DNA from: an uncultured Actinomycetes bacterium | GTDB taxonomy: Bacteria; Actinomycetota; Thermoleophilia; Gaiellales; JAICJC01 | DNA length: 64,000 bases | Direction of reading: 5' to 3' | Assembly (NCBI GenBank): GCA_963706075.1 | Contig: CAVPLP010000002.1 | Coordinates: 432,758-496,757 of the forward strand | In this document: piece by piece, positions 7,117 to 63,761 of the stretch | Layout of the letters: each line of letters starts with the position of its first letter | Numbering within the stretch: position 1 is the stretch's first letter | Program-made: the position numbers and the translations under genes | The notes under the pieces: generated by a model | Databases searched by the model: none | Told to the model about the DNA's origin: nothing | Seen by the model: only the letters and a program-made list of their open reading frames with translations

Positions 7117-9079
<1,963 letters not shown>

Positions 9080-9232: not shown

Positions 9233-9805
9233 TCAGTCGAGCGGCTCGGGCAGCTTCGACTCGTCGAGAGCGGCGACGTACGGCAGGCTCCGGTAGCGCT
9301 CGGCGTAGTCCAGCCCGTACCCGATCGCAAACCGGTTGGCGATCTCGAAGCCGACGTAGCGGCAGCGGATGTTGGCCTTGCGCCTGGCCGGCTTCGTGAG
9401 GAGGGCGCAGACCTCGAGCGAGGCGGGCTTGCGCGCCTCGAGGTTGCGGACGAGATACGAGAGGGTGAGCCCGGAGTCCACGATGTCCTCGACGATCAGG
9501 ACGTGCCGGCCCTCGATCACCGCGTCGAGGTCTTTCAGGATCCGGACGACGCCCGACGAGTCGGTGGTGTTGCCGTAGCTCGAGACGGCCATGAAGTCGA
9601 TCTCGCACGGCACCGTCAGCGTGCGCACGAGATCGGCGATGAAGAACACGGCGCCCTTGAGCACGCCGACCAGGACGGGGTCGAGCCCGGCGTAGTCGCG
9701 AGAGATCTCGGCGCCGAGCTCGACGACGCGGCCGCGCAGCTCCTCCTCCCCGACGAGCACCTCCGCGATCAGCGGGTCGTGATCGGCGGCGGTCGGGAAG
9801 TTCAT
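9233..9805 (-). CDS. hpt: Hypoxanthine phosphoribosyltransferase
   Basis: ATG at 9805 within ORF 9233..10627. [16 protein letters not shown]...[18 protein letters not shown] (PRPP motif)...[15 protein letters not shown]. Confidence 0.9.
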
Positions 9806-10740
9806 GGCTCGGCAGGATACCGGCTTCGCGACGGCGATCCGAAGACGAGGGTGCGCCGATCCCGGCACGCCTCGAGGTCGCGCCCGAGCGAGAGCCGCTC
9901 GACGCCCGCGGTCCGGCCCGCGAGCTCGACGAGCCTGTCGGTGAGGGCGCGCGGGAGGCGAAGCGGCCGGCCCGCGGCGCGCTCGGCCGCGGCCCGGAGC
10001 ACGATCGCCCGCAGCGGGCGCGGGAGCTCGGCCAGCCGGTCGAGGTCGAGGTCGGCCGTGACGTGCTCGTCGGCGAGGTCGTCGAGCAGCGCATCGAGCT
10101 CGGCCAGGAGCTCCGCGGTGCGAGCGATGTTCGCCTCGGCTCCGGGGTGGACGCGCCGCAGCGCCGGCATCACATCGTGGCGGATCAGGTTCCGGCGCAG
10201 GCGCGTGTCGGCGTTGGTGTCGTCGACCCGCGGGGCCAGCCCCGCCGCCCGGCACCACTCCCGCGTCTCGGATGCCGTCAGGCACAGAAGCGGCCGGGCC
10301 ACGTCGCCGGCACGAGGACGCATGCCCGACAGGGCGCGGACGCCGGACGAGCTGGCGAGCCGGTAGACGACGGTCTCGGCCTGGTCGGTCAGCGTGTGAC
10401 CGGTCGCCACGACCCGGCCGGCCGCGTGCTCGCGGGCGGCCGCATAGCGGGCCTCGCGGGCCCGCGCCTCGACGTTGGCACCGCCGTCGAGGTCGACCGG
10501 CACGACGGTTGCTCCCAGCCCGGCGCAGAACGCGGCGTCGTCGAGGCCCGCTTCGCCCCGCAGGCCGTGCTCGACGTGCAACGCCTCGACCGGATATCCG
10601 AGGTCGCGCAGGATCCCCCAGAGGCACAGCGAGTCGGCGCCGCCGGAGACCAGGGCGACCACCGGCTCGCCCGGTTCGAGCACACCGTGCTCGGCGACGA
10701 ATCCGGCTACGCGCTCAACGAGCTGCGAACCGGCGTGCAT
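9802..10740 (-). CDS. tilS: tRNA(Ile)-lysidine synthase
   Basis: ATG at 10740 within ORF 9802..11241. PP-loop [28 protein letters not shown], and VDDTNAD. 4-nt overlap with the hpt start. Confidence 0.9.
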
Positions 10741-11241
10741 AGCCCGTGCCGATCTCGATGTAGCGCGCGTGCGCCATCTGCGCGGCGTCGTCGTCCCCGG
10801 CCGCCTGCGCCCGCTCGATCTCGGCTCGCAGGTCGGCCAGCCGGCTCTCGAGGCGCAGGCCGAGGACGTCCTCCGGCGTGAGCTCGGACTCGCGGCCGAG
10901 CAGCCGAAGCGCCCGCGGCCGCCAGACATCCCGCAGCCGCCCGAGCGCCGGGTCGTCGCGAGGCCTCGAGCACCTCCCAGCCCCTCGTCGCCAGCGGCCG
11001 CAGCCGCCTCCCGCGCAACAACGGGGTCAGACCCCAATGTTGCGTCGCCGCCCGGGGCGATCCGCCCGCCGCAGGCGCACGGCTCGAGCAGCGGTGCGAC
11101 CTCGGACTCGATCCCCTCGCTCCCCAGCGTGAAGCCGTCCGCTCCGTTGAGCGCCAGGCGGACGAGTCCGACCTCGAGCGTGCGGGACGCCATGTCGTAC
11201 GCGGCGCCGCACGCCTCGCAGTGCCACGGATCCGCGGTCAC
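10715..11241 (-). CDS. Hypothetical CxxC...CxC protein with coiled-coil-like C-terminus (needs at least one frame change at ~10940-10975)
   Basis: MTADPWHCEACGAAYDM...EPCACGGRIAPGGD in the ORF 9802..11241 frame. A C-terminal part in another frame, DDPALGRLRDVWRPRALRLLGRESELTPEDVLGLRLESRLADLRAEIERAQ...YIEIGTGY, stops at 10715. It contains a palindromic-element copy at 11015-11043. Confidence 0.45.
11015..11043. repeat. Palindromic element copy 1 (GCAACAACGGGGTCAGACCCCAATGTTGC)
   Basis: Exact reverse complement of 34447-34475 (29/29). Lies inside the open frame of the hypothetical gene. Confidence 0.85.
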
Positions 11242-16234: not shown

Positions 16235-17833
16235 ATGCCCGAGAACCCGTCCACAATCGACCGCCTTCGCGGCCTTCTCGAGGTCACCCGGCTCGTGCGA
16301 GCCGAGACCGAGCAGTCGGCCCTGCTCGACGCGATCGCGACGTCGATCGCGACGTCGCTCGGATTCCACACCGTCGTCATCAACCTCTACCGGCCCGCCT
16401 GGAACGACTTCGAGGTGACGACGGTCCACGGCTCCGACGATGCCCGCCGGGCGTTGCTGGGAGACACGCTCGACTGGGGCGCCTGGGAGCCGCTCCTCGA
16501 CAAGCGCTTCGAGCGCCGCGGCACCTACCTGATCCCTCACGGAGCCTTCGACTGGGAGAGCGACGTCGGCCGGCGATACGTGCCCGACTGGGAGCCGAGC
16601 GCAGCGCCCGACGCGTGGCACCCCGACGACGAGCTGTTCGTGCCGATGCTCCACTCCGACGGCCACATGCTGGGCATCCTGTCGGTCGGCGAGCCCTACA
16701 CCGGCCTGCGCCCCTCCGACGAGGAGCTCGAGGTGCTCGTGGCCGTCGCCGACCATGTCGCCCTCGCCCTCGAGAGCTTCCAGGAGGCGGCGGCTGCGGC
16801 CCACCACCGGATCGCGCTGCGCGAGCTGCTCCAGGTGTCGTCGCGCCTCGCCGAGACGCCGTCGGTCGAGGCGATCCTCCAGGCCACGTGCGACGGCATC
16901 ACGCATGCGCTCGGGTTCCGGAAGGTGGCGGTTCAGGTCCCCGATCCGCGGAGCGGGGTCTTCGTCACGCGCGCGACGACCGGGTGGACGCTCGACGAGC
17001 TGGGACAGAACGCGCCGCTCTCGATGTGGGAGCTGGCGCCGCTCCTCGACCCGCCGTTCGAGATCCAGGGCTGCTACCTGCTCACCCACGAGCAGGCGAT
17101 GTCGCGCCTGCCTGCGGGCCACCGCATGTACAGGTCGGTCATGAACGGCCGCGGCCCATGGGCCTGGGACCGCCACTGGCTCGTCGTGCCGCTCCTCGAC
17201 CGCGACGGCAAGGTCATCGCCGTGATCTGGGCGGACGACCCCGACGACCGGCTCGTCCCTTCCCGGCAGCTGATGCAGGCCCTGCGGGTGTTCGCCAACC
17301 AGGCCACGGCCGCACTCGACTCCGCCGGCCGCTTCGAGGAGGTCAGGTTCCTCGCCGAGCACGACACGCTCACCCGCCTCTTCAACCGCCACGCGTTCGC
17401 CGCCCGGCTCGAGCTCGAGATGACGCGATCGACCCGCTACGGCCGGCCGTTCACGCTCGTCGTCCTCGACGTCGACGGGTTCAAGTCGGTGAACGACCGC
17501 CACGGGCACCTCGCGGGCGACGCCGCCCTCGAGCAGTGCGGTCTGGTCCTGCGCGCCGGGCTGCGCGCTGCCGACACGGCATACCGGATCGGCGGCGACG
17601 AGTTCGCGCTGCTCCTCCCCGAGACGTCGGCCGCCGAGGCGCGCGCGGTCATCGAGCGCATCGCCGAGGATCTCGAGGCGACGGGCGACCGGGCGGGCAC
17701 TCCGCTCCGGGCGAGCTTCGGCGTGATCGTCGGCGACGCGGGGCTGACGGACGCCGAGCGGCTGCTGCGCGAAGCGGACGCCGCGATGTACGAAGCCAAG
17801 CGCACCGGCGCGCACATCCATTTCGTTGCATGA
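16235..17833 (+). CDS. Diguanylate cyclase with two GAF-like N-terminal domains (GAF-GAF-GGDEF)
   Basis: ATG at 16235 within ORF 16073..17833. C-terminal HDTLTRLFNRHAF...VLDVDGFKSVNDRHGHLAGD...RAADTAYRIGGDEFALLLP has an intact GGDEF and an RxxD I-site 5 residues upstream. Confidence 0.85.
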   Translation: MPENPSTIDRLRGLLEVTRLVRAETEQSALLDAIATSIATSLGFHTVVINLYRPAWNDFEVTTVHGSDDARRALLGDTLDWGAWEPLLDKRFERRGTYLIPHGAFDWESDVGRRYVPDWEPSAAPDAWHPDDELFVPMLHSDGHMLGILSVGEPYTGLRPSDEELEVLVAVADHVALALESFQEAAAAAHHRIALRELLQVSSRLAETPSVEAILQATCDGITHALGFRKVAVQVPDPRSGVFVTRATTGWTLDELGQNAPLSMWELAPLLDPPFEIQGCYLLTHEQAMSRLPAGHRMYRSVMNGRGPWAWDRHWLVVPLLDRDGKVIAVIWADDPDDRLVPSRQLMQALRVFANQATAALDSAGRFEEVRFLAEHDTLTRLFNRHAFAARLELEMTRSTRYGRPFTLVVLDVDGFKSVNDRHGHLAGDAALEQCGLVLRAGLRAADTAYRIGGDEFALLLPETSAAEARAVIERIAEDLEATGDRAGTPLRASFGVIVGDAGLTDAERLLREADAAMYEAKRTGAHIHFVA

Positions 17834-17849
17834 TTCGAGGACCACGGCA

Positions 17850-19441
17850 ATGACCCCTCACGATCCCGAAGCGCTCTCCCGGCTGCGCGGGTTCCTCGAA
17901 GTGACCCGCGTCGTGCGATCGGAGGAGGAGCTCGGAGGCCTGCTCGCGTCGATCGCCAAGTCGATCTCGGAGTCGCTCGGGTTCGCCACCGTGTGCGTGC
18001 ACCTCCACCGCCCCGCGTGGGACGACTTCGAGGTGACGACGGTGCAGGGGAGCCCCGAGGCCGCGAGCGCCTTCTGGGCGACGCGCGCGGACGCGACGTG
18101 TGGGAGCCGCTGCTCGACGCGCGCTTTGCCCGTCGCGGCGCCTACCACGTGCCGCACGGCGAGTTCGACTGGGAGACGCACGCGCCGGGCTCGTACGTCC
18201 CGCCGGTGGCCGCAGGATCGGCGCCCGACGACTGGCATCCGCTCGACGCGCTCTTCGTGCCGCTCCGGCACGCGGACGGCCACCTGATCGGCATCCTCTC
18301 AGTCGACGAGCCCGTGAGCGGCCGCATCCCGACCGACGAGGAGCTCGACGTGCTCGTCGCCATGGCCGACCACGCCGCCATCGCCGTCCAGAGCGCCCAG
18401 GAGGCGGAGCAGGCGGCCCGCCACCGCGCCGCGCTCGAGCAGCTCCTGCAGGTGTCGTCGCGCCTCACCGAGACGTTTGCGATCGACGAGATCCTCCAGT
18501 CGGTCTGCGAGGGCATCCACACGGCGCTCGGCTTCGAGAACGTCTGCATCGACCTGCCCGAGCCCGACACGGACGGCTTCCGGACGCGCGCGGCGCACGG
18601 GTGGGATCTCGGCGATCCGGCGGTGAGCTCCGCCATGCCGTTCGCCCAGATCGAGCGCCTGCTCGACCCGCAGTTCGAGGTCGAGGGCTGCTATCTGCTC
18701 GACCACCAGCAGGGCCTCGAGCGGGTCGCTCCCGAGCACCACACCTACGAGTCGGCGCGCAGCGGGCGCGGGCCGCTCGCGTGGCGCAACCACTGGCTCA
18801 TCGTCCCCCTCTGGAGCCGCACCGGCGAGGTCATGGGCGCGATCTGGGCCGACGACCCGACGGACCGGCTGATCCCGTCCGAGCGCAAGCTCCAGGCGCT
18901 GAGGGTGTTCGCCAACCAGGCGACGACGGCGCTCGACACGGCCGCCCAGTTCGAGGAGATGCAGTTTCTCGCCGAGCACGATCCGCTGACGCGCCTGCTC
19001 AACCGGCGCGCGTTCAACGACCGGCTCGAGCAGGAGGTGTCCCGGTCGGTGCGATACGGCCACCCCATGGCGCTCGTGCTCTGCGACCTGAACGGGTTCA
19101 AGGCGCTGAACGATCGAAACGGGCACGCCGCCGGCGACGAGGCGCTCGAGGTCGTGGGCGGCGTGCTCACGAGCGTGCTCCGCACCGCCGACGCCGCGTT
19201 TCGGATCGGCGGCGACGAGTTCGCCCTCATCCTGCCGGAGACCGGCGAGGAAGAGGCGAGGGCCGCGGTCGACCGCGTGAGCGCGGCGATGTCGGTGGCG
19301 TTCGCCGCCAGGGACGAGAACCTCGCGGCCGGCTTCGGGGTCGCGATCTGCCCGCGCGACGGCGACGATCCGCGGCCGCTCTTCCGCGCCGCAGACCGCG
19401 AGATGTACGCGGCGAAGCCGCGCGTGCCTCGCGAGGCCTGA
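17850..19441 (+). CDS. Diguanylate cyclase paralog, GAF-GAF-GGDEF (frame change at ~18063-18066)
   Basis: MTPHDPEALSRLRGFLEVTRVV...VQGSPEAA (ORF 17826..18287) continues as RLLGDARGRDVWEPLLDARF (ORF 17993..19441), judged by alignment to the upstream paralog. Contains RTADAAFRIGGDEFALILP. Confidence 0.85.
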
Positions 19442-21548: not shown

Positions 21549-21581
21549 CTGAAAAATCGGGGTCAGACCCCAATCTTTCAG
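21549..21581. repeat. Palindromic element copy 2 (CTGAAAAATCGGGGTCAGACCCCAATCTTTCAG)
   Basis: Fills the gap between the convergent stops at 21547 (+) and 21582 (-). A-run, GC core, T-run on both strands. Confidence 0.85.
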
Positions 21582-21827: not shown

Positions 21828-22672
21828 TTATGTGTGAGCGGGGTGCGCGGTTTGGTAGAGATCGGGTCGTATGTGGAGAAGCGCCGGCAGCCGCTCACGA
21901 ATCGCCGTCTGCGCGTCGAGGTCGAGGTCGGCCACGATCACCCCGTCGCCCTCCGGCGACTGTGCGAGCACCGTGCCCCACGGGTCGATGATCATCGAGT
22001 GGCCGTAGCTCGGCTTGTCGAGGCCGCCCGGAGTCCCATGCTGGCCGGTGGCGAGCACGAAGGCCTGGTTCTCGATCGCCCGTGCCCGCAGGAGCACCTC
22101 CCAGTGCGCCATGCCCGTGTGGAGCGTGAAGTTCGACGGGATCGTGAGAATCCGCGCGCCGCGGTCGAGCGTGAGCGCCCGGTAGAGCTCGGGGAAGCGC
22201 AGGTCGTAGCAGACGGTCAGGCCGACCGAAACGCCGTCGAGCTCCGCCGTGACGAGGTCGCCGATCCGGGCGCGGTGCCGTCTGATTCGCGGTAGCTGAA
22301 TCCGCCGACGTCGACGTCGAACAGGTGGATCTTGGTGTAGGCGGCGATGCGCTCACCACGCCGGTCGAAGGCGAGCGAGACGTTGTGGACGGCGTCGTCG
22401 TCGGCGACGATCGCGATCGAGCCGCCGATGAGGTTGATGCCAAGGTCGCGCGCCCAGCCGGCCATCGCGTCGACCGTCTCGCCGCCGTCGATCCGCTCGG
22501 CCAGCGGACGCAGGCGCGGCCCGTCCATCCAGGCGTTCCACTTCTCGGGGAGGAGCACGACGTCGGCGCCGCGGCCGGCGGCCTCGGCGACGAGCGGCGC
22601 CATCAGCGCCACGTTCTCCGACTTGTCGGCCCGGGCCGAGAACTGGACGCAGGCTGCGCGGATCGTGCTCAC
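21828..22672 (-). CDS. Carbon-nitrogen hydrolase (nitrilase superfamily) protein (frame change at ~22258-22275)
   Basis: MSTIRAACVQFSARADK...VVLLPEKW...YTKIHLFD (ORF 22217..22672) continues, by my own translation upstream of ORF 21828..22112, as GDLVTAELDGVSVGLTVCYDLRFPELYR. That part carries the catalytic Cys, then AHWEVLLRARAIENQ. Confidence 0.8.
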
Positions 22673-23752: not shown

Positions 23753-23772
23753 GCCTTCGAGTGTACCGACCC

Positions 23773-23808
23773 CTGAAAAATTGGTGCCTGGCACCGATTT
23801 TGCATCAG
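23773..23808. repeat. Palindromic element copy 3 (CTGAAAAATTGGTGCCTGGCACCGATTTTGCATCAG)
   Basis: Lies between the hyuB end and the clpS start. The hyuB C-terminal frame reads through it without a stop, directly into the clpS frame. Confidence 0.85.
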
Positions 23809-32802: not shown

Positions 32803-32839
32803 CTGAAAAAACGGTGCCAGGCACCAATTTTCACCTCAG
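32803..32839. repeat. Palindromic element copy 4 (CTGAAAAAACGGTGCCAGGCACCAATTTTCACCTCAG)
   Basis: Starts 1 nt after the ligase stop and overlaps the convergent proS stop (32836-32838). Confidence 0.85.
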
Positions 32840-34260: not shown

Positions 34261-34446
34261 GGCGCATCCAGTTCTCGGCGTTGACGAAGGGCGTCGTTCG
34301 TCACGGCGTTCCGGGCGGTGTGCCGGGAACGCCTACGCCGGGATGCGCGGCAGCACGAGGGCGACAGGGCCACGAGTGTGGGTGGTGTCGCGTCGAGCAA
34401 GCATGCGACGGAGGCTAGCAAACAGGGCTCGGCCCTCCGAAGCCGC

Positions 34447-34475
34447 GCAACATTGGGGTCTGACCCCGTTGTTGC
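34447..34475. repeat. Palindromic element copy 5 (GCAACATTGGGGTCTGACCCCGTTGTTGC)
   Basis: Exact inverted copy of 11015-11043. Lies in the divergent region between proS and the TPP riboswitch. Confidence 0.85.
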
Positions 34476-34489
34476 ACTAAACTGCCGTC

Positions 34490-34588
34490 GAGCGTTTGCC
34501 GGGGAGCCCCGCAGGGGCTGAGAGGGTGCCGCAGAGGCGCCGACCCGCGAACCTGATCTGGGTAATGCCAGCGAAGGGATGCACGCAA
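34490..34588 (+). promoter_or_regulatory. TPP (THI-box) riboswitch
   Basis: GGGGAGCCCCGCAGGGGCUGAGAGGGUGCCGCAGAGGCGCCGACCCGCGAACCUGAUCUGGGUAAUGCCAGCGAAGGGA carries the hallmark CUGAGA, ACCUGAUCUGG-UAAU-CCAGCG and AGGGA blocks. It is followed directly by an ABC importer operon. Confidence 0.85.
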
Positions 34589-35294
34589 GTGAGCGAGGTC
34601 GTCGTCACCGACGTGACGAAGAGCTACGGGCCTGTCGAGGCGCTGGGCGGCGTGAGCCTCCGCGCCGGCGCGGGCGAGACCGTCGGGCTCGTGGGGCGCA
34701 GCGGCTGCGGGAAGTCGACGCTGCTTCGCATGATCGCGGGCCTCGACGCCACGGACGTCGGCCGGATCACGGTCGGCGGAGCCGACGACGAGCGCGGCCG
34801 CCTGGAGCACTGTGCCCTCATGCCGCAGGCCGACCTCCTGATGCCCTGGCGCGACGCTGTCGGGAACGCGTCGATCCCGCTCGAGAACGCGGGCGTCGAC
34901 CGGAGCGAGGCACGCCGGCGGGCGGCGGAGCTCTTCGCTGAGCTCGGGCTCGACGGCTTCGAGCGGGCACGATCGTGGGAGCTCTCGGGCGGGATGCGCC
35001 AGCGGGTCGCGTTCGCGCGCACGCTCCTCGCCGAGAAGCCCGTGCTCCTCCTCGACGAGCCCTTCGGCGCGCTCGACGCCATCACGCGCACCGAGATGCA
35101 GGAGTGGCTCGCCGGCGCGCTCCACGCCCGGCCGCGAACAACCGTCCTCGTGACCCACGACCTGGACGAGGCGCTGCGATTGTGTGACCGCGTGGTCGTC
35201 CTGACCGCCCGGCCCGGCCGCGTCGCCTGCGAGCTCGACGGCGCCGGGCCCGGCCGAGTCCGCCCGCGAGCAGGCCCTGGAGACGCTTCGATGA
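34589..35294 (+). CDS. ABC transporter ATP-binding protein, ThiZ-like (frame change at ~35236-35255)
   Basis: GTG at 34589. Walker A GRSGCGKST, signature LSGGMRQR, Walker B LLLDEP. In the +1 frame the end reads ...PAESAREQALETLR with its TGA overlapping the permease ATG (ATGA at 35291-35294). Confidence 0.85.
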
Positions 35295-55058: not shown

Positions 55059-55698
55059 GCCAGGCGAAGGTTACGAGGCTCGCCGGTATCGTGCCCGGGT
55101 GCCGTCCCGCGGGCCCGCATACCGGATCGTCACGAGGCGCCTCGTGGTCCGCTGCTGGGAGCCGCGCGACGCCCCGCTCCTCAAGGACGCGATCGATTCG
55201 AGCCTCGACCATCTCCGCGCGTGGATGCCGTGGGCGCAGCACGAGCCCCAGACGCTCGCCGAGAAGGTCGAGCTTCTGCGCGAGTTCCGGGGGCAGTTCG
55301 ACCTCGGCGCCAACTCCGTCTACGCGATCTTCGACGCCGCTGAGGAGCGCGTGCTGGGCGGCACCGGCCTCCACCCGCGGATCGGCCCCGGCGCGCTCGA
55401 GATCGGCTACTGGATCCGGGCCGACGCCACCGGCCGGGGCTACGCGACCGAGTCGACGGCCGCGCTCACGCGGGTGGCGTTCGAGGTGGCCGACGTGGAC
55501 CGGGTCGAGATCCGGTGCGCGCCTGCGAACCTCGCGAGCGCCGCCATCCCGCAGAAGCTCGGATATGCGCTTGTTGAGTCGGGCGAGGATCTGATCTTCG
55601 CCATCGCGAAGGGCGACTTCCCCGGGAGCCCGTCGGCGGCGACGCCGCTCGCCGCCTACGACGTCGTGGGGGCGGCGTTGGTCGACGGCCTGGGGTGA
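55057..55698 (+). CDS. GNAT-family N-acetyltransferase (RimJ/RimL-like)
   Basis: ATG at 55057 with AAGGAGG 6 nt upstream, within ORF 54775..55698: TRRLVVRCWEPRDAP...IGYWIRADATGRGYATEST. Its start overlaps the divergent surE start (CATG). Confidence 0.8.
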   Translation: MPGEGYEARRYRARVPSRGPAYRIVTRRLVVRCWEPRDAPLLKDAIDSSLDHLRAWMPWAQHEPQTLAEKVELLREFRGQFDLGANSVYAIFDAAEERVLGGTGLHPRIGPGALEIGYWIRADATGRGYATESTAALTRVAFEVADVDRVEIRCAPANLASAAIPQKLGYALVESGEDLIFAIAKGDFPGSPSAATPLAAYDVVGAALVDGLG

Positions 55699-55727
55699 AA
55701 CATTGGCATCAGGCACCGCTGTTTCAG
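55695..55727. repeat. Palindromic element copy 6a (GTGAAACATTGGCATCAGGCACCGCTGTTTCAG)
   Basis: Overlaps the GNAT stop codon. First unit of a head-to-tail dimer. Confidence 0.8.
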
Positions 55728-55760
55728 GTGAAACATTGGTACCTGGTACAGGTGTTTCAC
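55728..55760. repeat. Palindromic element copy 6b (GTGAAACATTGGTACCTGGTACAGGTGTTTCAC)
   Basis: Second 33-nt unit. It ends 2 nt before the convergent truA stop (55763). Confidence 0.8.
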
Positions 55761-55762
55761 GG

Positions 55763-60816: not shown

Positions 60817-62094
60817 CTACTTCAGGAAGCCCTTGTAGGAGCGCATCGACAGCTGCGACTCGATCTGGCGCATCGTGTCGATGGCGACCCCGACGACGAT
60901 CAGCACGGACGTGCCGCCCAGGGCCCGCGCGGTGGCGGTCGAGAACCCGCCGTACTTGATGAAGAGCGACGGCAGGACGGCCACGGCCGCGAGGAAGAGC
61001 CCGCCCGCGACCGTGAGCCGCACGAGCACCTTCTCGAGGTACTGCGCGGTCGGCCTCCCCGGTCGCACGCCGGGCACGAACCCGCCGTACTTCTTGAGGT
61101 TCTCGGCCTGCTCGATCGAGTTGAAGACGACGGCGACGTAGAAGAACGTGAAGCCGAAGATCAGCACCGCCTCGCCGATCAGGAACGGCCAGCCGCCGGG
61201 CGTGAAGAACTGTGCCATGTCCTTGGCGAACTGCCACGGGAGGAGCGATCCCACGGTCGGCGGGAACGCCATGATCGCCGCCGCGAAGATGACCGGGATG
61301 ACGCCGGCCATGTTGACGCGAAGCGGAAGGTAGGTCGAGCCGCCCGAGGTCATCCTTCGCCCGACCATCCGCTTGGCGTACTGGATCGGGATCTTGCGGA
61401 TGCCCTCCTGCACGTAGACGACCGCCACGATCACCAGGAAGACGACGACCGGCAGCGACAGCTTCTCGAAGGTCGAGCCCTGCCACCAGGCCGAGATGCC
61501 GGCCGGGGCCGACGTCAGGATCGAGGCGAAGATCAGGAGCGACATGCCGTTGCCGACGCCGCGCTGGGTGATCAGCTCGCCGATCCACATGAGGAGCGTC
61601 GCGCCCGCCGTCAGCGTGACGACGATCAGGATCACGTTGCCGAGGTTGAAGCTCACGAGGTTCCCGGTCGCGGCCGAGCCGAGGGCGTTCGAGTGGAACG
61701 CGTACGTGTAGCCGAGCGCCTGGAGGCTGGCGAGGAGGACGGTGAGATAGCGCGTGTACTGCGTGATCCGGCGCTGCCCGAGCTCGCCCTCCTTCTGGAG
61801 CGCCTGGAGCGACGGGAACACCGGCGTCATGACCTGGAGGATGATCGAGGCCGTGATGTACGGCATGATCCCGAGCGCGAAGACTCCGAGGCGCGCGAGC
61901 CCGCCGCCCGAGAACACCGACAGGAGGCCGAAGATGCCGCCCTGGTTCTTGAGCGCCTCGGACAGCGCGTCGGAGTTCACGCCCGGCGCCGGGAGGTACG
62001 ACCCGAACCGGTAGATCGCGAGCATGGCCGCGGTGAAGAGGAGCTTCTTGCGGAGCTCCGGGGACTTCCAGGCGTTCAGGAGGTTCTGGAGCAC
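60817..62094 (-). CDS. secY: Preprotein translocase subunit SecY
   Basis: 425-aa polytopic ORF: ...FALGIMPYITASIILQ...GGFVPGVRPG.... Confidence 0.95.
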   Translation of the reverse strand: MLQNLLNAWKSPELRKKLLFTAAMLAIYRFGSYLPAPGVNSDALSEALKNQGGIFGLLSVFSGGGLARLGVFALGIMPYITASIILQVMTPVFPSLQALQKEGELGQRRITQYTRYLTVLLASLQALGYTYAFHSNALGSAATGNLVSFNLGNVILIVVTLTAGATLLMWIGELITQRGVGNGMSLLIFASILTSAPAGISAWWQGSTFEKLSLPVVVFLVIVAVVYVQEGIRKIPIQYAKRMVGRRMTSGGSTYLPLRVNMAGVIPVIFAAAIMAFPPTVGSLLPWQFAKDMAQFFTPGGWPFLIGEAVLIFGFTFFYVAVVFNSIEQAENLKKYGGFVPGVRPGRPTAQYLEKVLVRLTVAGGLFLAAVAVLPSLFIKYGGFSTATARALGGTSVLIVVGVAIDTMRQIESQLSMRSYKGFLK

Positions 62095-62096
62095 GC

Positions 62097-62729
62097 CTAC
62101 TCCTCGGCGTCGGCCTCGGGCTCAGCCTCGGCCTCGGCTTCGACCTCGGCTGCCTCGGGCTCCGGCTCGGCCTCCGCCTTGGGCGCGGGCTTCTTGGCCT
62201 TGGGCTTCGCCTTGGGAGGCTCCGGCACCGCGGGCGTGCCGTCGACCCGCACGGCCTTGCCGCCGGCCGCCTCGATCAGCTCGACCGCGCGCTTCGAGAA
62301 CGCGTGCGCGGTGACGGTGAGGCTGGTCGTGAGCTCGCCCTTCCCGAGGATCTTGATCGGATGCTTGAGGCTGCGGACGACGCCGGCCGAGCGGAGCAGC
62401 TCGGGCGTCACCTCGACGCCCGCGTCGAAGCGCTCGAGCGACGCCACGTTGACCGGCGTGGTGTGCGTCCGGAACGGCCCCATGGGCATCGACTTCTTGT
62501 GGTTCGGGCCGCGCAGCTTGCCCAGGCGCATGTAGAGCGGCATCTGGCCGCCCTCGAACCCGGGGCGCATGCTGTGGCTGCCCGACCGCGACTTCTGGCC
62601 CTTCTGGCCGCGCCCGGCGGTCTTGCCGCTTCCGGAGCCGTGACCGCGGCCGATCCGCTTGCGCTCGCGGTGGCTCCCTTCGGCCGGCTTCAGCTCGTGC
62701 AGGGTGAGTCCGGGGGTCGCGTCAGCCAT
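62097..62729 (-). CDS. rplO: 50S ribosomal protein L15 with ~60-aa Lys/Pro then Glu/Ala/Pro-rich C-terminal extension
   Basis: 210-aa ORF: LHELKPAEGSHRERKRIGRGHGSGSGKTAGRGQKGQKSR... is typical L15. The tail is PEPPKAKPKAKKPAPKAEAEPEPEAAEVEAEAEAEPEADAEE. Confidence 0.9.
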   Translation of the reverse strand: MADATPGLTLHELKPAEGSHRERKRIGRGHGSGSGKTAGRGQKGQKSRSGSHSMRPGFEGGQMPLYMRLGKLRGPNHKKSMPMGPFRTHTTPVNVASLERFDAGVEVTPELLRSAGVVRSLKHPIKILGKGELTTSLTVTAHAFSKRAVELIEAAGGKAVRVDGTPAVPEPPKAKPKAKKPAPKAEAEPEPEAAEVEAEAEAEPEADAEE

Positions 62730-62907
62730 CGATCTCCTCCACGCGAACCAGGTGGTCCACCTTTCGCAGCATGCCTCGGATCACCGGCGAGTCGTCGCGC
62801 TCGGTCGAAGCGTTGATCTTGCGCAGGCCGAGGGCCCGCATCGTGCCCTTGTGCTCGGGCTTCGTGCGGATCGTGCTCCGGACCTGTGTGATCTTGAGGC
62901 GCGCCAT
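62722..62907 (-). CDS. rpmD: 50S ribosomal protein L30
   Basis: 61-aa ORF: [32 protein letters not shown]. Confidence 0.9.
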   Translation of the reverse strand: MARLKITQVRSTIRTKPEHKGTMRALGLRKINASTERDDSPVIRGMLRKVDHLVRVEEIDG

Positions 62908-63761
62908 CAGGACTCCTCGGCCTCCTCAGCCGGGGTCGGCCTCGGGCTCAGGCTCGGGCTCCGGGGCCGCCTCGGGCTCGGCTGCCGCTTCGGGCTCCGG
63001 CTCGGGCTCGGGTGCGGCTCAGGCTCGGGTGCGGGCTCCGGCTCGGCTGCCGCCTCGGGCGGCGCCTCGGCGGCGGCTTCGGCCTTGGCACGGGCCTTCT
63101 TCGACGGCCGCTTGGTCTTCACGGGAGGCGCCTTTGCGGCAGGCGCGGGCGCGGCCTCGACGACCTCCGCCTCGGCCTCGACGGCAGCGGCGGCAGCGGC
63201 CGCCTCGGCGAGCGTCTCGGAGTGGGGCTTCACGACCTCCCGGATCTCCTTGCCGCGGAGCTTGGCGACGTCCTCGGGGCGCTTCAGGCTCTTCAGCCCG
63301 TCGACCGTGGCCATGAGCAGGTTGATCGGGTTCGCGGTCCCGAGCGACTTGGCGAGGATGTCGCGCACGCCGCCCAGTTCGAGCACGGCGCGGACGCCCG
63401 CGCCCGCGATGACACCCGTCCCCTCGGAGGCGGGCTTCAACATGACGCGGCCGGCGCCGTAGCGGCCGACGATCTGGTGCGTGATGGTCGTCTTGTACTT
63501 GGGCACCTGGAAGAGGTTCTTCTTCGCGTCCTCGACGGCCTTCGCGATCGCCGACGGCACCTCGTTCGCCTTGCCGTAGCCCACGCCGACGTGGTCCACC
63601 TCGTCGCCGACGACGACGAGCGCCGTGAACGAGAACCGGCGGCCGCCCTTGACGACCTTGGCGACGCGGTTGATCTTGACCACGCGCTCCTGGAGCTCGC
63701 GGCCGGGCACCTCCGAGCCGCGGGCGGCGGGGTTTCGGGACTGACGTGGCGCGTACGACAT
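62907..63761 (-). CDS. rpsE: 30S ribosomal protein S5 with ~110-aa Ala/Glu/Pro-rich C-terminal extension (possible frame change at ~63010-63020)
   Basis: ATG at 63761 within ORF 62907..63923: [27 protein letters not shown]...[12 protein letters not shown]. The tail is [28 protein letters not shown].... The last ~35 aa switch style, and an alternative frame gives [28 protein letters not shown] with a TGA at 62926-62928. Confidence 0.9.

Follow-up and report, generated by a model that had tools for sequence, protein, structure and literature searches.

The subject of this analysis is a short palindrome inside a gene on contig CAVPLP010000002.1 of an uncultured Actinomycetes bacterium. It was studied in a stretch of 64,000 nucleotides (nt) with 71.7% G+C, and the whole of this stretch is referred to as the window. 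A sequence-only reading of the window had pointed out that the 29-mer GCAACAACGGGGTCAGACCCCAATGTTGC at 11015-11043 on the plus strand recurs as an exact reverse complement at 34447-34475. It does, and a repeat finder widens the identity to 30 of 30 positions (11015-11044 versus 34446-34475). When up to three mismatches to the 29-mer are allowed, there are two matches in the window, compared with 0.00 expected from 100 dinucleotide shuffles. The surroundings had also been described correctly. The flanks of the two copies are unrelated. The copy at 34446 lies between proS, recognized by its Pfam ProRS domains, and a thiamine pyrophosphate (TPP) riboswitch at 34490-34597. The copy at 11015 is translated in frame on the minus strand (..GGDATLGSDPVVAREA..) as part of a gene upstream of tilS, and the product of that downstream gene is indeed a PP-loop (TilS-type) ATPase.

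Both copies belong to a family of hairpins. The unit is 29-33 nt long and consists of an A/T-rich outer stem of 6-8 bp, a 2x2 mismatch and a palindromic core of 13 nt, which is either GGGGTCWGACCCC or GGTGCCWGGCACC. There are seven copies in the window, which bears out the earlier remark that other, differing copies exist (Table 1). Six of the seven are intergenic, and four of these six sit in gaps between convergent genes. The specificity of the window copies was judged with shuffled-sequence controls, and the criterion that is specific is the requirement for a perfect A/T-rich outer stem. A scan for structure only (any 6+1+6 palindrome with any 6-bp outer stem) was discarded as unspecific, with 67 matches versus 57 in the shuffles. 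As RNA, single units fold at -10 to -23 kcal/mol (z -2.1 to -4.0), and the folds are 3.6-4.7 standard deviations better than shuffles for all window copies except the one at 32804 (z = -2.1). The sense-strand RNA of the 11015 copy folds at -22.9 kcal/mol (z = -3.8) and the tandem pair at 55697/55730 at -32.5 kcal/mol (z = -4.7). In the TGAAAA/TTTTCA class the core is bordered by an A-tract and a T-tract, which the GCAACA class, including the 11015 copy, lacks. The TGA/TCA of the outer stem ((G/C)TGAAA...) is sometimes also the stop codon of a flanking gene. This is so at 55696-55698 and 55760-55762 in the window, and at 7687-7689 of a related locus, L085, where the gene encodes a transposase. 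(L-numbered loci are DNA fetched from related or core-bearing assemblies and compared with the window.)

Table 1. Host gene, its two extra bases and the hairpin copies of the window.
Feature	Position	Strand	Description
Host gene	10715..11241	-	Conserved uncharacterised protein; CxxC...CxC N-terminal and helical C-terminal domain; 174 aa without the two extra bases
First frame-breaking extra base	11004..11005	-	One C of plus-strand CC, after ..AREA; relative to intact orthologs
Second frame-breaking extra base	10958..10960	-	After ..LEAS; relative to intact orthologs
Intragenic copy	11015..11044		GCAACA/TGTTGC stem, 2x2 mismatch, core GGGGTC-A-GACCCC = GGGGTCWGACCCC; minus-strand reading A-T-L-G-S-D-P-V-V-A
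Identical inverted intergenic copy	34446..34475		GCAACA/TGTTGC stem, core GGGGTCWGACCCC; between proS start and TPP riboswitch
Family copy	21549..21581		CTGAAA/TTTCAG stem, core GGGGTCWGACCCC (GGGGTCAGACCCC); occupies gap between convergent genes
Family copy	23773..23808		CTGAAA-type stem, alternative core GGTGCC-T-GGCACC (GGTGCCWGGCACC); between two minus-strand genes
Family copy	32804..32833		CTGAAA-type, core GGTGCCWGGCACC; TGAAAA-AAC-GGTGCCAGGCACC-AA-TTTTCA; gap between convergent DNA ligase gene and proS
Variant copy, first of tandem pair	55697..55725		GAAACA-TT-GGCATCAGGCACC-GC-TGTTTC; between convergent genes
Variant copy, second of tandem pair	55730..55758		GAAACA-TT-GGTACCTGGTACA-GG-TGTTTC; between convergent genes

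Is the gene that holds the palindrome one gene? Judged by third-position G+C, coding on the minus strand passes through three frames in turn (frame 2, then frame 0, then frame 1): from 11241 to about 11050, then for about 45 nt, and then from about 10960 to the stop codon at 10715. A protein search with the joined product returned 172 relatives. The best are 174-175 aa long at 100% query cover and come from Gaiellales-type metagenome-assembled genomes (MAGs) and soil metagenomes. They are uninterrupted (..GGDATLGSDPVVAREA(V/L)RPLATRGW(D/E)VLEASDDPALGRL..), and the window encodes the same residues. The sequence-only reading had placed one frame change some 50 nt beyond the element. A frame break is present there, and it is made up of two insertions of one base each, with 15 residues between them that are readable in a third frame. 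It had also offered the alternative that the 'gene' is really two open reading frames (ORFs) split by insertion of the element. This we reject, because relatives have a single ORF of 174-175 aa that spans both halves and because, within the C-terminal part, a start codon comes no earlier than the last ~20 codons. The host gene is one gene, and a Pfam search of its protein found no family.

The two frameshifts are probably assembly (consensus indel) errors, because other window genes show the same kind of break relative to relatives. Insertions of 1-2 nt are present at 22256, 24294, 25641 and 27729 in comparison with both L002 and L024, which are two independent related assemblies. Those at 22256 and 25641 interrupt ORFs that run through undamaged in both. 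This suggests that the assembly of the window is indel-prone. One product of the frameshifts is a spurious fusion ORF of 479 aa (9802-11241, minus strand), in which the first frame runs stop-free into the TilS-type gene. For annotation, this 'fusion' is not to be trusted as read.

The intragenic copy is old. Twelve close metagenome orthologs carry the element at the same codons, and they do so in two forms. The first is GAC GCA ACA TTG GGG TCT GAC CCC GTT GTT GCG, with the element read as ATLGSDPVVA. The second is CCT GAA AAA TTG GGG TCT GAC CCC GTT TTT TCA (PEKLGSDPVFS), which belongs to the other stem class and is changed in both arms. The codon positions of the element are the same even in orthologs that are only 78-88% identical in nucleotide sequence elsewhere in the gene. 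It is this retention in frame at one site that argues for age. The perfect identity between 11015 and 34447 had been taken as a sign of recent copying. This is not supported, since the 29-mer is the consensus of the family and the identity of two copies is therefore no indication of a recent transfer between the two sites.

The composition of the element differs from that of the gene around it. Codons ending in A or T make up 47% of the element versus 7.9% of the rest of the gene. Where codons specify the same residue, third positions are 92% identical in the element and 73% identical elsewhere, and as a whole the element is less diverged than the rest of the gene. The A/T-ending codons and the third-position identity suggest that it is the DNA, rather than the protein, that is constrained. 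The sequence-only reading had named orthologs with the same peptide, diverged at synonymous sites, as a result that would count against recent copying and mark an ancient coding sequence. Orthologs with the same peptide do exist, but the segment does not behave as ordinary coding sequence; it appears to be constrained or homogenised at the DNA level.

Identity inside the element does not follow identity outside it. L122 and L125 are 97% identical outside the element and only 70% identical inside it. The same pattern is seen for the window and L119 (94% outside, 79% inside) and for L118 and L124 (94% outside, 76% inside). The opposite is seen as well: the window and L160 are 78% identical outside and 97% inside, and L119 and L125 are 80% identical outside and 97% inside. 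Stem class is thus uncoupled from the relatedness of the genes, and at least three block replacements would be needed to account for it. A swap of stem class (ATLGSDPVVA for EKLGSDPVFS) between near-identical genes indicates that the intragenic element has probably undergone concerted evolution.

The site itself is predicted to be a structurally permissive loop between two domains. AlphaFold2, run on the ortholog alignment, gave a mean confidence score (pLDDT) of 90.7 and placed residues 67-76, which the element encodes, in coil that separates a strand from a helix. The block of residues 61-70 has a pLDDT of 77 and is the least confident internal block. Other lineages have longer linkers here, and these contain other palindromes. 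There are two GGGGTCAGACCCC cores in L152 and L161, read in other frames (GQTP, GVRP), GGGGACAGTCCCC in L132, and GGTGCCWGGCACC in L134, L137 and L146.

The next question is how far the family extends beyond the window. An exact scan for the 17-mer CGGGGTCAGACCCCAAT, with one genome per species, yielded at least 116 loci. Among the matches listed are Gaiellales, Thermoleophilia and 'Actinomycetes' MAGs with several copies each, a count to be read as a lower bound, and also Burkholderiales (including Massilia isolates), Acidobacteriota, Gemmatimonadota, Verrucomicrobiota and Clostridia. The flanks of the core vary by lineage yet stay self-complementary. Across 128 distinct copies, covariation in outer-stem columns that lie outside the search pattern is 0.242 versus 0.109 in shuffles (0 of 500 reach 0.242), and it is 0.07-0.12 when the partners are slid. 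The exact 29-mer GCAACAACGGGGTCAGACCCCAATGTTGC occurs 16 times in the fetched DNA and in at least six other species-level genomes. Most copies are singletons. Doublets are tandem at 55697/55730 and in L002, and inverted pairs are present in some proteobacterial loci. The host gene is not the only one with an in-frame copy: such copies also lie in other, unrelated genes of related and unrelated genomes (L102 at 6563 and 7559, L029 at 4497, L063 at 4326 and L110 at 272). In L102 the lysine 5,6-aminomutase alpha subunit carries ..AGDATLGSDPDVAPEA.. and a neighbouring gene carries ..RGQTPMVQ... For annotation, short 'GSDP/GQTP/GVRP' peptides in these genomes mark copies of the repeat. L102 and L019, whose flanks resemble those of the window, were considered as orthologous loci and dropped: tblastn with the host protein found nothing in them, and the repeat of L102 lies inside the aminomutase gene just mentioned. 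A different arrangement was seen in the non-actinobacterial loci L049 (4242-4334), L050, L097 and L116, where a half-motif, CAGACCCCAAT, forms direct tandem arrays unlike the hairpin singletons; one example, from a Spirochaetes MAG, has a period of 38 nt.

Comparison of orthologous intergenic sites uncovers turnover. The copy at 21549 is kept in both L002 and L024. At window position 23771, L002 has an extra copy of 34 nt (GCAACATCGGGGTCTGACCCCGTTGTTGCGCCGG) that is missing from the window and from L024. No target-site duplication, which the sequence-only reading had proposed to look for, flanks this filled site when it is compared with the empty site of the window and L024. Next to it, the orthologous copy at 23773 has a GGTGCC core in the window and L024 and a GGGGTC core (GGGGTCTGACCCC) in L002, a difference of two compensated base-pair changes. 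The earlier suggestion of mobility or gene conversion was therefore right as to the type of process, in that copies are gained, lost and overwritten and orthologous sites switch stem class or core.

A link between the family and a transposase is found in relatives. L085 comes from the Thermoleophilia bin GZL_HY_2_bin.89, the closest reference genome, which is syntenic with 19.9-26.6 kb of the window at ~87% nucleotide identity. L085 encodes a protein of 233 aa that matches Pfam Y1_Tnp at 40.5 bits and NCBIfam REP_Tyr_transpos at 77.3 bits, just below the cut-off of 80. Its gene has one family copy ~80 nt upstream and another, in inverted orientation, that overlaps the stop codon. The neighbourhood of amidohydrolase, transposase, tetratricopeptide repeat (TPR) protein and ThiF recurs at four other orthologous loci (L169-L172). 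In all five of these Gaiellales/Thermoleophilia loci the single-copy transposase gene is flanked on both sides by family copies at the same positions. The left and right copies also shift class jointly: both are of the TGAAAA class in L085 and L169, both are the exact GCAACA 29-mer in L171 and L172, and both have a GGTGCC-like core in L170. At five more loci (L064, L048, L095, L081 and L032), from Betaproteobacteria, Clostridia, another actinobacterial MAG and Opitutae, a homologous Y1 transposase gene lies within 0.5 kb of the 13-nt core, which may reflect either horizontal spread or conservation of a recognition motif.

What kind of transposase is this? A protein search returned thousands of homologs, many of them named RayT by JGI, and a PDB sequence search with the L085 protein gave no match at E <= 0.001. 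The proteins are 231-279 aa long and have the motifs NH[YVFI]H, FQ/WE and Y..(L/A)NP together with a C-terminal helix-turn-helix (HTH). L085 has NHYH, FQ and YLAANP, L064 has NHVH, FE and YIELNP, and L095 has NHIH, FQ and YIHLNP. The HTH matches Bac_DnaA_C at 41 bits in L095 (cut-off 31.5) and HTH_23 at 19 bits, under the cut-off, in L085, and homologs carry PF13384 and PF13936. TnpAY1 subclass 2.1 is described as having NHVH or NH[YF]H, W[EQ] or FQ, and YIELNP or Y[IV]HLNP (Y---NP) (Table 1 of PMC6006769), a length of ~238 aa and a C-terminal HTH-like domain (Bac_DnaA_C, HTH_23 or HTH_28; PMC6006769). Quentin et al. treat this subclass as identical to the TIRYTs that Di Nocera et al. described (PMC6006769), and the inverted repeats that flank TIRYT genes share GGGGWSAS (PMC3733652). 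The repeats described here contain GGGGTCAG / CTGACCCC; GGGGTCAG fits GGGGWSAS, and the motif is present on both strands of the core. By its motifs, the transposase thus fits the type formed by TIRYTs and RAYTs (transposases associated with repetitive extragenic palindromic, or REP, sequences), within TnpAY1 subclass 2.1.

We consider it very likely that the palindrome at 11015 is a copy of a REP-like hairpin family, the cognate repeat of a domesticated Y1/HUH transposase of the RAYT/TIRYT type, and that it is old, translated and held at the consensus by processes acting on DNA. The family is multi-copy, its outer stem covaries, its copies come and go without target duplication and are overwritten at fixed sites, and it flanks the transposase gene at five loci. 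By analogy with the chemistry of Y1/HUH enzymes, IS200/IS605 and TnpA-REP of E. coli, the transposase would recognise the hairpin in single-stranded DNA, cut it and rejoin it, and this action would spread and homogenise the copies. In an ancestor of the clade, the 11015 copy would have entered, or arisen in, the loop between the two domains of the host protein. The element amounts to 10 codons that are open in frame, and it would hence have been tolerated and translated as ATLGSDPVVA. From then on its sequence would be held at the family consensus by DNA-level processes and not by selection on the protein.

Several observations do not sit easily with this explanation. There is no Y1/HUH transposase gene within the 64-kb window, so the transposase link rests on relatives. 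Quentin et al. found no REP-like sequences beside subclass 2.1 genes (PMC6006769). The canonical REP tag GT[AG]G has no counterpart, in that no conserved tetranucleotide adjoins the stem, whether among the 128 aligned copies or among those of the window. Copy numbers outside the window are lower bounds from loci that were selected on the 17-mer CGGGGTCAGACCCCAAT. Finally, no ortholog has an empty site that is shorter by exactly 29-30 nt, and the nearest element-free orthologs have a linker of equal length (25 residues from CGGR to RGW), so that a plain insertion of 29-30 nt is hypothetical.

What if the palindrome is only incidental? The segment could be ordinary ancient coding sequence in which the peptide alone is selected, and orthologs do have the same peptide in the same place. 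We regard this as extremely improbable. Third positions of this gene are ~92% G or C, yet six of the ten element codons belong to the rare ones that end in A or T. The synonymous sites of the element are more conserved than the rest of the gene, and the block flip to EKLGSDPVFS involves complementary change in both arms. Moreover, copies of this 29-mer are scattered over several genomes and border a transposase gene. A real pseudogene (or a pair of genes) broken as a consequence of the element is unlikely. Both frame-breaking bases lie within 60 nt of it, and the C-terminal frame would likewise be regained if exactly 29 nt were taken out. However, the element was rejected as the cause of the frame break: intact orthologs retain the element, two single bases are the sole difference in frame, and the residues between them can still be read. 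The fit of 29 nt to the frame is consequently a 1-in-3 coincidence. The other window genes that are broken relative to two independent relatives also speak against this reading.

The remaining rivals grant the palindrome a function of its own. It would be very improbable for it to be an operator, that is, a site in double-stranded DNA for a dimeric protein that controls a regulon or organises the nucleoid. The perfect 13-bp core with symmetric flanks, the one copy in a promoter-bearing divergent region and the HTH domain of the associated transposases are in keeping with this idea. Nevertheless, the outer stem is free in sequence yet self-complementary, which fits intramolecular pairing and not base-specific recognition of a duplex. 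Most copies are at the 3' ends of genes, and the core is swapped for a different palindrome at orthologous sites. It is improbable, although less remote, that the hairpins act chiefly at the RNA level, as bidirectional terminators or stabilisers of 3' ends selected in transcripts, with the transposase link secondary. The folds are stable, the four copies in convergent gaps come directly after stop codons, the TGAAAA.../...TTTTCA class reads as A-tract, G+C hairpin and U-tract on either strand, and REPs of other bacteria have been reported to act in this way (PMC3733652). On the other hand, a generic terminator needs no single 13-nt core common across phyla, and the GCAACA class is without the U-tract. 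Copies also lie inside genes and upstream of proS in a divergent region, and the transposase gene is flanked at five of five orthologous loci. Of all the rivals, an RNA role alone is plausible as a side function that intergenic copies have acquired, and as such it is compatible with a REP-like family that moves and is homogenised as DNA.

The explanation by a REP-like family can be taken a step further in two ways: active homogenisation may operate on the family at fixed sites, through transposase-mediated exchange or gene conversion, and TIRYT/subclass 2.1 genes, reported as lacking REPs, may own a cognate compact hairpin repeat. We find the case for these readings evenly poised. If the first is true, ~10 amino acids of a conserved protein would be set, and switched together (ATLGSDPVVA <-> EKLGSDPVFS), by a DNA element rather than by protein selection, and the protein linker would be a recurrent landing pad for palindromes in several lineages. 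If the second is true, the 13-nt core would be common to at least five phyla.

Some observations in the window stand apart from these questions. The tandem pair at 55697/55730 lies beside genes for a GNAT acetyltransferase and a pseudouridine synthase. The junction of its two GAAACA units (55720-55735) reads TGTTTCAGGTGAAACA, one mismatch away from the parS consensus TGTTNCACGTGAAACA, and its outer ends, GTGAAACA and TGTTTCAC, resemble parS half-sites. As candidates for the family, parS, integron attC sites, the inverted-repeat ends of Tn3-family elements (GGGGTCTGAC...) and CRISPR repeats were weighed and dropped, the defining length, arrangement or motifs being missing. Elsewhere, 16261-19276 consists of two adjacent segments of ~1.6 kb that are 71-76% identical (1617 nt from start to start), which looks like a tandem pair of paralogous genes. 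At 62093-63088, minus-strand coding sequence contains short, degenerate, G+C-rich units repeated in direct orientation (CGGCCTCGGGCTC-type, with periods from 12 to 18 nt), which probably encode a low-complexity acidic or Pro-Ala-rich region of a protein.

How does the family compare with known systems? Full-text literature searches on the core sequence found no relevant paper. The closest system is TIRYT/TIRtron (Di Nocera 2013, PMC3733652), which corresponds to TnpAY1 subclass 2.1 (Quentin 2018, PMC6006769) and to RAYT group 1 of Bertels. The enzymes share a Y1/HUH protein of ~235 aa with NH[VYF]H, FQ/W[EQ] and a Y..LNP-type motif and a C-terminal HTH. In both cases the gene is single-copy and syntenic, with inverted flanking repeats that contain GGGGWSAS, and the repeats, some of them self-complementary, make up dispersed families of moderate abundance. 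There are differences, however. Here the flanking repeat is a compact hairpin of 29-33 nt with GGGGWSAS on both strands at its apex, it is dispersed at seven copies per 64 kb and also lies inside genes, and Gaiellales/Thermoleophilia are not among the described lineages. A hairpin repeat is present here, whereas subclass 2.1 has no REP-like structures according to Quentin et al. (PMC6006769).

The canonical REP/REPIN-RAYT systems of E. coli and Pseudomonas (Nunvar 2010; Bertels and Rainey 2011, PMC3116915; Ton-Hoang 2012; Messing 2012, PMC3479197) are likewise imperfect palindromes of 20-40 nt in many copies, mostly just 3' of genes. They also share a domesticated Y1 transposase gene flanked by inverted copies, several sub-types per genome and the lack of target-site duplication. 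In contrast to them, the present family has no 5' GT[AG]G tag, its doublets are tandem and not the inverted pair of a REPIN, and its transposase belongs to a different subclass.

The in-frame copy has precedents of its own. Rickettsia palindromic elements (RPEs), which Ogata and colleagues reportedly described in 2000, lie in frame in proteins. Intragenic REPs have been described (PMC3733652), including in-frame REPs inside tnpA-REP genes (PMC6006769). Common to all of these is a palindrome in the loop or linker of a conserved protein that is translated and does not destroy the protein. With its 10 codons, the 11015 element falls far short of RPE-1 in length. It also differs in that one site has been repeatedly overwritten by family variants in close relatives and in that the same linker holds other palindromes in other lineages. 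REP/RAYT systems are already published, as are GGGGWSAS repeats beside TIRYT genes and REPs or RPEs that lie in frame inside genes (PMC3733652, PMC6006769, PMC3116915). What differs here is the lineage, the absence of GT[AG]G, the compact hairpin form of a repeat associated with subclass 2.1 and the repeated overwriting of one coding site. This extends systems of the REP/RAYT type to the uncultured and very G+C-rich Gaiellales/Thermoleophilia and ties a compact dispersed hairpin repeat to TIRYT/subclass 2.1 transposases, where typical REPs were reported missing. It also provides a natural case of a single coding site overwritten again and again, which could be used to study how repeats are homogenised.

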